From assembly GCA_951406725.2 (NCBI GenBank), contig OX597824.1, positions 42,656,001 through 42,720,000 of the forward strand: a DNA stretch of 64,000 nt. Reading direction: 5' to 3'. This document shows, one piece after another, positions 26,772 through 55,167 of the stretch. The DNA comes from Octopus vulgaris (Eukaryota). Position numbers and translations under genes: made by a program. Every line of letters begins with the position of its first letter. The stretch's first letter is position 1. The notes beneath the pieces are model-generated. The model did not search any database, was not told the DNA's origin, and saw only the letters and a list, made by a program, of their open reading frames with translations.

Positions 26772-26964
26772 AGTGAGAATTTACAAGAAAAACAAAAGGC
26801 GAAGACGGGTGTGTAAACAACAAACAGATGTATTAGTTTAACGTTCGGGAAGTGAGAAAGTCTTTTACGTTTCAAGCCTACGCTATTCGACAGAAAGGAA
26901 CACAAAAATAAACCGGGAGAAAAAATTAAAAAAGGTTTAGTGGCTAGCGATCTATTATGGCGAA
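26772..26964 (-). mobile_element. ~190-bp (TA)n-inserted element E with variant hammerhead-like motif
   Basis: Homologous in opposite orientation to 55011-55167 (CGCCAT-ATAGATCGCTAGCCACTA). Motif at 26862-26897. Confidence 0.7.
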
Positions 26965-26976
26965 TATATATATATA

Positions 26977-27210
26977 TTATTAAAAGCAGCAGAAATATCC
27001 CAAAAACAGTTACAGAGAGTTTCACGTTCCCGTTCGTCGGACAGTTTTGTTAGAATCTAACAAAACTGTCTGACGAACGTGAACGTGAAACTCTGAGTAA
27101 CAGTTTTTATGATATTTCTGCTGCTTTTAATAAAGCATATTATTCTACCCCTGGTACTTAAGTACTCCTTTTTCCACCTTGTTTCACATTTATGTGCTTA
27201 CTCCGGTATA
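26977..27210 (+). mobile_element. Penelope-type pLTR fragment with inverted 5' copy (palindrome 26977-27133)
   Basis: ~77-bp arms around a 3-nt centre, each arm carrying a hammerhead; inserted in (TA)n. Confidence 0.78.
27062..27107 (+). ncRNA. Minimal type I hammerhead ribozyme
   Basis: AAAACTGT-CTGACGA-ACG TGAA CGT-GAAA-CTC T GAG-TA-ACAGTTTT. All three stems pair and the core is intact. Confidence 0.88.
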
Positions 27211-27420
27211 TATTATATTTATATATACGACTGGTTTCTATCAGTTTCCGTCTCCCAAGTCCACTCACAAGGCTTTGGTCGGCTCGAGGCTATAGTAGAA
27301 GACACTTACCCAAAGTGCCACGCTTCTTACCACACAGCCACTCTTGCACCTGTATGTATTGAAAAAGAGAAGGGTTAGTAGTTACAAGATGGTACTAAAA
27401 CAGTGTTAGGTACAGAAAGT

Positions 27421-27732
27421 GGATGGGCATGCTTTAGTGGTTAGGGGTATACGGCTTACGATCATAAGGTTGTGAGTTCGATACCCAGCGGCGCGCTGTG
27501 TTCTTGAGCAAGATACTTTATTTCACGTTGCGCCACTCCACTCAGCTGGCAAAAATGAGTTGTAACCGCAATTCATCGTGTCCCATTGTGCGTCACGAGG
27601 AATCTCCCTGAGAACTATGATGAGGGCACGTGTGTCTGTGGAGTTCTCACCACTTTCACGTTAATTTTATGAGCATGCTGTTCTGCTGATCGGATCGACT
27701 GAAACACTCGTCATCGCAACCGACGGAATGTC
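27421..27732 (+). mobile_element. tRNA-derived SINE (family C-related)
   Basis: A box ..TTTAGTGGTTAGG, B box GAGTTCGATACCC, then TTCTTGAGCAAGATACTT...CCACTCAGCTGGCAAAAATGAGT. Confidence 0.8.
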
Positions 27733-28274
27733 AGGTACAGAAAAGAGGTGGTAAATGAAAACGCTTGAAAAAAAAAGGCAAAATAAATTAATGTTTCGAC
27801 CAGGAAACTCTGAGTTGCACTGTAATTAGTAGGACTTGTATTTTTAACATAATATTACACATACACACACTCACACACACATGCACACACACACACACAC
27901 ACACACACACACACACACGCACACACACACACACACACGCACACATGTATGTATGTATGTATGTATGTATGTATGTATGTATGCACATATATATATAACA
28001 AATGATAGAGATGGAAAATGGAATATACAATAAACTTTATTGCTCATAACTAACGCTTTGATCATATGTATCTATGTACGCATGTATGTATGTATGTATG
28101 TATGTATGTATGTATGTATATATATATATATATGTATATATATATATATATATATATATATATATATAGATAGATAGATAGATAGATAGATAGATAGATA
28201 GATAGATAGATAGATAGATAGATAGATAGATAGATAGATAGATAGATAGATAGATAGATAGATAGATAGATGAG

Positions 28275-53800: not shown

Positions 53801-54034
53801 TCGGGGGCATACAGCTGATTACAATTGCCCTAGCAGAAGCGTAAATAATTTCATTTAACTCAGTAAAATCAGGTTTTAATTCTTGTATTATTTCATTTGT
53901 TACATAGTTGCCAATTTGGATTTGTTTTTTATTTTGGTTTGTATTTGAGAGTTTATGAAGTGGTTCTCTATCATTCATACTTGTATGTCTTACAACTTCA
54001 AGCGTATTCAGGATTTTCTGCCTCATTTCTGCCA
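50890..54034 (-). mobile_element. Second R4/Dong-clade LINE, ~3.1 kb, frameshifted ORF
   Basis: NWKSPGKD, YRPITCL, EQKGC, WIDYKKAFDSIPH, GIFQGDSLSP, YMDDLKLY, CRFC..ETVDHLISGC, KPDIV; (TAA)n tail at 50601-50880. Confidence 0.96.
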
Positions 54035-54036
54035 TA

Positions 54037-54410
54037 GGCATATGGCGTAGTGGTTAAGACCGTCGGCTAATAACCACAAGATTCCGAGTTCGATTCCAAG
54101 CAGTGACCTGAATAATAATAATAATAACAACAACAACAACAACAACAATAATAATAATAATAATAATAATAATAATAATAATAATAATAATAATAATAAT
54201 AATAATAATAATAATAATAATAATAACATCGGGGAATACCTTAGGAATGAGAACTCAGATTCGAAATTTCCCCAAGACACCTGAAGAAGGCTGGAGGGTA
54301 TATCAGCCGAAACGTTGTGTTAACAACAAACAAGATGAGAACAAATATCCGTCAAATGTAAATAATGTAAATAATGTACATAATTCTTCATCTCTTAAAT
54401 ATAGAACTAT
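54037..54410 (+). mobile_element. tRNA-headed SINE with internal (AAT)n and a hammerhead-containing 3' part
   Basis: A box TGGCGTAGTGG (54043), B box GAGTTCGATTCC (~54086), (AAT)n at 54111-54225, HHR at 54276-54321, and short AATGTAAAT repeats near the end. Confidence 0.8.
54276..54321 (+). ncRNA. Minimal type I hammerhead ribozyme
   Basis: GACAC-CTGAAGA-A-GGCTG..CAGCC-GAAA-CG-TT-GTGTT; palindromic AACGTT stem III. Confidence 0.8.
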
Positions 54411-55010
54411 AGATAGAAATGTTACGAAGAAATTTTCCTTTTTATCCCTTATCCAGGCTAAGAACTGCGCAATTTCGGTGTTAAGTATAGTACATGCCCA
54501 AAATACAAGAAAGTTCACAAGAATTTATGATATCATGAGTTAAAGACCAACCAAGGAAACTCATTTTAATATTTCGCGGCGGAACAGAAGCAACAGTAGA
54601 TATGAAACAAATAGATAAGACATAATTGTGAAGTGGTTAAGCGGAACAGATAAAAAAGAAAACGACCACTACGAAGAACTCAGAACAGAATGGTAAAGCT
54701 ATTGTACCAGTAAAGACAGAGAATACACTATGTATTGATACTTAAGTCTTTTACGACAGGAATAATACAGACCAAAACAAATTGTGCGCTCAACGCATGT
54801 GTATGAGAGAGAGAGAGAGTGTGTGTGTGTGTGTGTGTGTGTGTGTGTGTGTGTGTGTGTGTGTGTGTGTGTGTGCGTGCGTGCGTGAGTGTGTGTGTGT
54901 GTGTGTGCGTGTGTGTGTGTGCGTGTGTGTGTGTACATAATCTATATATACATATATGTATATATGTATATACATACATACACAAACACATATCAATATA
55001 TATATGCATA

Positions 55011-55167
55011 CGCCATGATAGATCGCTAGCCACTACACATTCTTTATTTTCTCGCCTCTCTGTGTTCCTTTCTGTGGAAGAGCGTTGGCTCGAAACATTT
55101 AAGACCATATGTTTGTTGTCTACACCACCTGTCTTCGTCTTCTGCTTTTTGTGAATTCTCTCCCTAT
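55011..55167 (+). mobile_element. Element E, second copy, in (TA)n
   Basis: Reverse homolog of 26772-26964; motif CTTT-CTGTGGAA-GAGC GTTG GCTC-GAAA-CATT at 55068-55103. Confidence 0.72.

Follow-up and report, generated by a model that had tools for sequence, protein, structure and literature searches.

A high-copy Octopus vulgaris repeat carrying a minimal hammerhead motif with U at core position 6

The U6 motifs of the window

The window, that is, the whole 64,000-nt stretch of Octopus vulgaris DNA that was analyzed (contig OX597824.1, positions 42,656,001 to 42,720,000), is AT-rich, microsatellite-rich, animal-type DNA filled with repeats. An earlier sequence-only reading had reported four hammerhead-like strings in it, two in copies of a repeat called element E (E1 and E2) and two in the units of a 142-nt tandem (M1 and M2). 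All four were found where that reading had placed them (the 142-nt cores are at 46635 and 46777), and each has U instead of A at core position 6 plus one A between A9 and stem II. The features are as follows:

26776..26962, minus strand: element E copy E1, ~190 bp, with (TA)n on both sides and thousands of related contigs in each of four runs
26862..26897, minus strand: minimal type I hammerhead motif of E1, defined from the sequence and the family letters
26897-26894 with 26865-26862, minus strand: stem I of the E1 motif
26893 (C3), 26890 (U6), 26889 (N7), 26888 (G8), 26887 (A9) and 26886 (inserted A), minus strand: core of the E1 motif
26885-26874 (stem II), 26873-26870 (GAAA), 26869-26868 (CG palindrome) and 26867 (U16.1), minus strand: 3′ parts of the E1 motif
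After A17 at 26866, minus strand: predicted cut in E1
46497..46553, minus strand: inverted partial copy of the 142-nt unit, extending ~40 nt past the right-hand end of the array (Penelope-type tail)
46553..46694, plus strand: 142-nt unit M1, with a motif at 46630-46670 (U3, U6, inserted A)
46695..46836, plus strand: 142-nt unit M2, with a motif at 46772-46812 (U3, U6, inserted A, 5-bp stem II, GAAA, UA palindrome)
55010..55168, plus strand: element E copy E2, with the same ends as E1, a 29-nt deletion just 3′ of the motif and (TA)n on both sides
55068..55103, plus strand: hammerhead motif of E2, with the U6 core and an intact 4-bp stem II

None of the four U6 copies is an intact minimal hammerhead, since each is damaged beyond U6. 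E1 carries U10.1 and U11.1, the former private to this copy and the latter a minority letter of the family; in E2, position 16.2 is A and stem I is disrupted. In M1, stem II is damaged, G12 is replaced by A, and four of the five stem I pairs form; in M2, stem I is broken. The two 142-nt units are identical at 120 of 142 positions, and both have U3 opposite G8. When a strict minimal-hammerhead descriptor was applied to the window, it returned five A6 motifs and no U6 motifs (0 to 1 matches in each of 60 shuffles). With every window copy damaged in this way, decay is possible on the window evidence alone. E and the 142-nt unit had been called unrelated, which holds at the sequence level: their alignment is no better than alignments of shuffles.

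It had also been suggested that standard models miss such motifs. Rfam hammerhead models indeed gave no match up to E = 10 on four stretches, the U6 motifs going undetected, but they also missed minimal motifs with the canonical A6 located in those stretches. The cause is thus not U6, and the Rfam test does not discriminate. Over the whole window, the best 150 of 302 Rfam matches were far below gathering scores, and nearly all were miRNA models on microsatellites.

Position 6 and constraint in the E family

Contigs at least 80% alike were aligned on E1 in four of the 24 runs listed by a search with 11 words (word shares at most 0.36). The numbers of aligned contigs were 11,865 in X9, 7,228 in X2, 10,683 in X4, and 9,534 in X7 (organisms A, B, C, and D, respectively). 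Differences from E1 were recorded only from 5% of depth in any run, and the percentages given below refer to depth-weighted contigs, not to copies. At position 6 (26890), U made up >95% of depth in four of four runs. No difference reaching 5% was recorded at 26886-88, 26890, 26891-97, 26870-73, or 26862-67 in the four runs; C3-G5, G8, A9, the inserted A, GAAA, U16.1, A17, and both strands of stem I are invariant at this threshold as well. Only at N7 were three alternative letters recorded in each of the four runs (C 30–47%, U 20–32%, G 24–33%, and A 3–17%); in the E family, position 7 is thus any base and not just the C or G given in the earlier reading. The letters that distinguish E1 in stem II are overruled by the family, which has G10.1 (26885) at 96–99% and C11.1 at 83–89%. 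The remaining changes within the motif fall at CpG sites (3–23%).

The resulting majority motif is CUUU CUGUNGA A GAGC GUAG GCUC GAAA CG U A AAAG. By its letters, the motif departs from a complete minimal type I hammerhead only in U6: the other six canonical core positions (C3, U4, G5, N7, G8, and A9) fit, position 6 lacks the A, and G12 A13 A14, the A15.1-U16.1 pair, and H17 are all present in the family. A canonical CUGA consensus would have spoken against the sequence-only reading and is not what the family shows. For E, its view of a non-canonical core rather than random decay agrees with U6 being the family letter and with the retention of both stems and of the CG palindrome. Overall, these contig data support U6 as the family state of E rather than the decay of single copies.

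The invariance at position 6 might also be produced by the alignment itself, if A6 relatives were under-counted through differences from the U6 reference at neighboring positions. The contigs are short, the reference has U6, and the cut-off was 80%, all of which could act in this direction; a CpG site beside a private mismatch was read at lower rates (26843, 2–5%), and a distant autonomous partner would escape alignment altogether. However, copy-private letters located 3 to 5 bases from the core were overruled at 96–99% (26885), adjacent double differences were recorded (26825 and 26826 in X7), and none of the 24 loose ends listed (818 more lie outside these) falls at 26886-26893. Since both single differences nearby and adjacent double differences were recorded, bias is unlikely to hide a major A6 class, and we consider this explanation very improbable.

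The listed loose ends accumulate immediately beyond stem I, at 26899/26900 and 26857, which indicates that relatives with other flanks share the E motif. When CpG and copy-private sites were excluded, 1 of 29 motif sites was variable (N7 itself) compared to 10 of 51 sites in the 3′ flank (Fisher P = 0.050); for the constrained motif sites, a post hoc selection, the comparison was 0 of 24 versus 10 of 51 (Fisher P = 0.025). As the regions were chosen after the data had been seen, the sites go back to few master lineages and are not independent, and depth is not copy number, we regard this as moderate evidence for constraint. The invariance of U6 taken alone is not significant, because 41 of the 51 flank sites are also invariant. 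All four N7 variants occur on U6, which suggests that the constraint acted on a U6 background. The stems are invariant except for CpG decay, and the E contigs contain no compensatory change; the stems of E and of the 142-nt unit differ in sequence, and each is complementary.

A founder effect could mimic such conservation. One non-autonomous master may have lost A6 and spread as a dead relic since cleavage was not needed, with few lineages giving the appearance of constraint. The marginal statistics (P = 0.025 to 0.05), the breakage of every window copy, and the two core deviations, U3 and U6, of the 142-nt units are all compatible with this scenario, as is work on the insertion of Penelope-like elements (PLEs) in vitro, for which cleavage was not needed in the one PLE tested (PMC11167929), and on CUGA-turn mutants, which are poorly active (PMC9901934). 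Two observations speak against a relic: three alternative letters occur at N7 alone, among them transversions, which are not accounted for by CpG decay, and the core is constant although the contigs begin to differ right beyond stem I on either side. We hold the relic explanation to be rather unlikely, though it deserves more weight than alignment bias.

Comparison with PLE hammerheads and other known systems

Minimal hammerheads of PLEs (min-HHRs), as described in the available part of PMC4209133, have a base between positions 9 and 10.1, a G10.1-C11.1 pair, a palindromic 15.2-16.2, a short helix I, and U-rich flanks, and they cleave weakly and only as multimers. The majority letters of E show the 9/10.1 insert, G10.1-C11.1, the palindromic 15.2-16.2, and a helix I of 3 to 5 bp. 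With the metazoan PLE min-HHRs of Cervera and de la Pena (2014; PMC4209133, in the part available), E further shares the type I layout, the absence of a stem III loop, and the U-rich flanks; like most of them, it occurs as solo copies. The extra A, which had been taken as non-canonical, thus corresponds to the published 9/10.1 insert of PLE minimal hammerheads, and only U6 is unusual. Position 6 is A in 44 of 44 rows examined in the alignment of PMC4209133 and in 34 of 34 rows of File S2 of PMC8557442, compared to U in E and the 142-nt units. These published rows were found by descriptors built on CUGANGA, so U6 would not appear among them. Since E has the additional PLE traits but lacks A6, we file it as a variant rather than as a plain member of this group.

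PLE insertions are described in the accessible part of PMC8557442 as combining inverted and tandem pieces with 30- to 40-bp tails at (TA)n or microsatellite targets. Among these traits, E has the (TA)n target; neither a tandem nor a tail was seen at E1 or E2. When the 93 window open reading frames of at least 75 amino acids were compared to Pfam, no GIY-YIG domain was detected, and the motifs have no link to the reverse transcriptase (RT) frames at 48698-53252. As no PLE open reading frame was found in the window, the link of E to PLEs rests on anatomy; non-autonomous PLE copies would not be expected to contain an RT/GIY-YIG frame.

At the 142-nt locus, the tandem, the inverted arm, the ~40-nt tail, and a microsatellite target are all present, the whole insertion sitting in (AAT)n/(TTA)n; stem II and the palindrome of M2 fit the PLE minimal hammerhead traits. 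The U3 opposite G8 in both units also occurs in the Saccoglossus(1) row of PMC4209133, as far as its available part goes. On the basis of this single insertion, we regard the 142-nt element as a likely second remnant of a PLE, with U6 as in E. If the tandem formed at insertion, U3 and U6 would already have been in the mobilized RNA, but the same picture would result if the parent had already decayed or if the duplication came later. With two units of one insertion as evidence, the odds that U6 is the family state of this element are about even.

An origin from Naiads, in which U6 would explain their missing hammerheads, was considered and is not supported, the E words having no match in the published consensuses. 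Three E-specific words occurred zero times in the supplement of PMC8557442, where line breaks could mask a match; a fourth occurred three times, each time in a Chlamys entry.

A natural change at the same position is known from the A6C hammerhead of phage Bcep176, which likewise has a pyrimidine at position 6 with a predicted loss of core hydrogen bonds (PMC3088659 and PMC7151607, both in part). There the letter is C rather than U, the locus is a single phage one, and activity was measured, whereas E is a high-copy family known from its sequence. The A6C hammerhead cleaves at <0.1 per min in Mg (PMC3088659, available part) and at ~0.3 per min in Mn (PMC7151607, available part). The Schistosoma PLE U3-A8 min-HHRs resemble U6 in being a family-level core variant that the standard descriptor misses, but their change is compensatory, while U6 has no visible compensating change (PMC4209133, available part). 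Non-LTR retrozymes are, like the repeats considered here, short, non-coding, hammerhead-bearing, and probably PLE-derived, and the 142-nt dimer is a short tandem as in these elements; in retrozymes, the type I motifs are canonical and the units tandem, in contrast to E, with its solo copies and minimal motif (PMC7229834 and bioRxiv 10.64898/2026.07.22.740005, both in part).

A natural U6 hammerhead family was not found in the literature searched; the PLE variants of Lunse et al. 2017 (RNA Biol 14:1499) lie outside this scope and possibly include U6. None is contained in the available portions of PMC6765202, PMC7229834, PMC11014351, PMC10886601, or bioRxiv 10.64898/2026.07.22.740005. A word search of the supplements of PMC3088659 gave zero matches in their text, their figure of inactive variants possibly being an image.

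Predicted fold, proposed mechanism and further motifs

The isolated 44-nt E motif with majority letters was predicted to adopt the hammerhead fold within 0.2 kcal/mol of the minimum, with probabilities of 0.99 for stem II and ~0.5 for stem I. In the whole element, the predicted probability of each stem was at most 0.01, which implies that help with refolding would be needed. Folding z-scores of single copies did not fall below −0.9, and since this was true of canonical controls as well, these scores are uninformative.

Published changes of A6 cleave poorly, so the predicted activity of E is low, probably requiring a dimer or a protein. A deep mutational scan of a type III hammerhead showed poor activity for mutants with one or two changes in the CUGA turn region, the C3:G8 swap excepted (PMC9901934, available part). 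Cleavage by the hammerhead of the Anolis PLE requires the protein of that element and was dispensable for insertion in vitro (PMC11167929, available part). Taken together with the weak, multimer-only cleavage of min-HHRs and the slowness of A6C, these observations lead us to expect slow, assisted cleavage. We propose that two E motifs, in tandem copies or on two transcripts, would pair through the self-complementary ACGU at 15.1-16.1 to form stem III; 142-nt motifs would dimerize through AUAU in the same way. G12 and the G8 ribose would act as in other hammerheads, and the strand would be cut after the A of GUA (A17, 26866), at a rate presumably lowered by U6. A PLE protein supplied in trans may serve as chaperone and mobilizer of E RNA.

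Alternatively, the fold rather than catalysis may have been kept, the U6 motif being a putative binding or priming signal for a PLE protein in which U6 is tolerated, or even favored, as it spares the template before reverse transcription. The genomic E1 and E2 copies span the predicted cut site intact, the E motif is constrained, and, in the available part of PMC11167929, insertion in vitro mainly used unprocessed RNA and the cut site was not the end point of any read, all of which this explanation would accommodate. Against it, G8, G12, and the NUH triplet (GUA) are kept at >95%, as would be expected for catalysis, and we judge it unlikely.

The reading that we prefer, at a probability of about one half, is that E is a high-copy ~190-bp repeat of (TA)n sites with a U6 type I motif, likely a non-autonomous PLE derivative, whose cleavage would be slow, dimeric, and probably helped by a protein. 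A more far-reaching proposal, which is tentative and on balance doubtful, holds that CUGUNGA is a working natural core, fixed independently in at least two PLE lineages of this genome and kept by selection in many thousands of copies across several related species. It would represent an A6U class that no CUGANGA descriptor can detect, with an activity that may be reduced or may depend on a different metal or protein cofactor.

Position 6 is regarded as an invariant A, and searches of genomes for hammerheads demand this letter. A large U6 family that keeps the other core bases and varies only at N7 offers a direct test of what preserves hammerheads in PLEs, their cleavage or their fold. If the U6 motif cleaves, then animal genomes contain more hammerheads than have been counted, and the core tolerates more variation than has been supposed; if it is constrained without cleaving, a non-catalytic role in PLE mobilization would be indicated.

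Scans with the E pattern gave zero loci in viral, metagenome, and genome contigs, and the 142-nt pattern gave zero loci in viral contigs. Six bacterial loci from a looser E pattern lacked stem I or the E flanks, and two bacterial loci matching the 142-nt pattern lacked the core; both sets were treated as chance. A generic U6 pattern, the U6 form being the only one scanned, matched 39 loci in metagenome contigs, most without stem I; five have a 3-bp stem I and represent a single locus present in five assemblies. Self-BLAST was run on all 39 loci and the search for inverted partners on 13 of them. Inverted partners covering the core were found at four distinct loci, and three of these read A6 (L001, L027=L032, and L039), the fourth, L002, reading U6. 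Lone U6 copies elsewhere thus often appear to be products of decay; a single U6 copy is weak evidence, and only family data carry the claim. The 39 loci gave no evidence of further U6 families. U6 minimal-hammerhead motifs with plausible stems lie at L002 349-410 (U6 in both inverted arms), L003 401-432, and L015 96-122, and these three are possible further families.

Canonical motifs are also present in the window. Adjoining E1 through (TA)n is a 157-bp palindrome (26977-27133) with a hammerhead motif in each arm: the one at 27070-27101, plus strand, has canonical CUGACGA and an 8-bp stem I, while the opposite arm has decayed. Its arrangement is similar to that of the motifs from Hydra-clade PLEs given in File S2 of PMC8557442. 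E2 is adjoined through (TA)n by a 240-bp inverted repeat (55185-55424 and 55500-55739, 100% identical), probably a young PLE remnant, whose arms each carry a canonical CUGAAGA hammerhead (55604, plus strand; 55320, minus strand). A canonical minimal hammerhead lies at 54276-54321, plus strand, beside (AAT)n, with CUGAAGA, the inserted A, a 6-bp stem II, a CG palindrome, and a 5-bp stem I. At 2848-2790, minus strand, there is a further candidate with CUGACGA, a 6-bp stem I, and a weak stem II, in which stem III has a palindromic insert of 10 nt.

Two broken non-LTR RT elements (RVT_1, zf-RVT), which we take to be R4/Dong-like, occupy 47997-53252, minus strand, among (TAA)n; one contains an in-frame poly-Glu tract, and a 21-bp tandem repeat (50064-50581, ~25 copies, 93% matches) lies upstream of an RT frame. 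A 165-bp tandem repeat at 15731-16409 (4.1 copies, 95% matches) has no hammerhead match. An open frame of 197 codons at 28389-28982, plus strand, had no Pfam or Atlas match. Pfam matches identified a fragment of a Pif1 helicase 2B domain at 16634-17176, plus strand, which appears Helitron-like, and a Tc1/mariner-type transposase fragment at 9713-10334, plus strand. Multi-copy SINE-like families, 70–90% alike, are located at 26516-26760, 58944-59341, 40385-40698, 4380-4791, and other positions.
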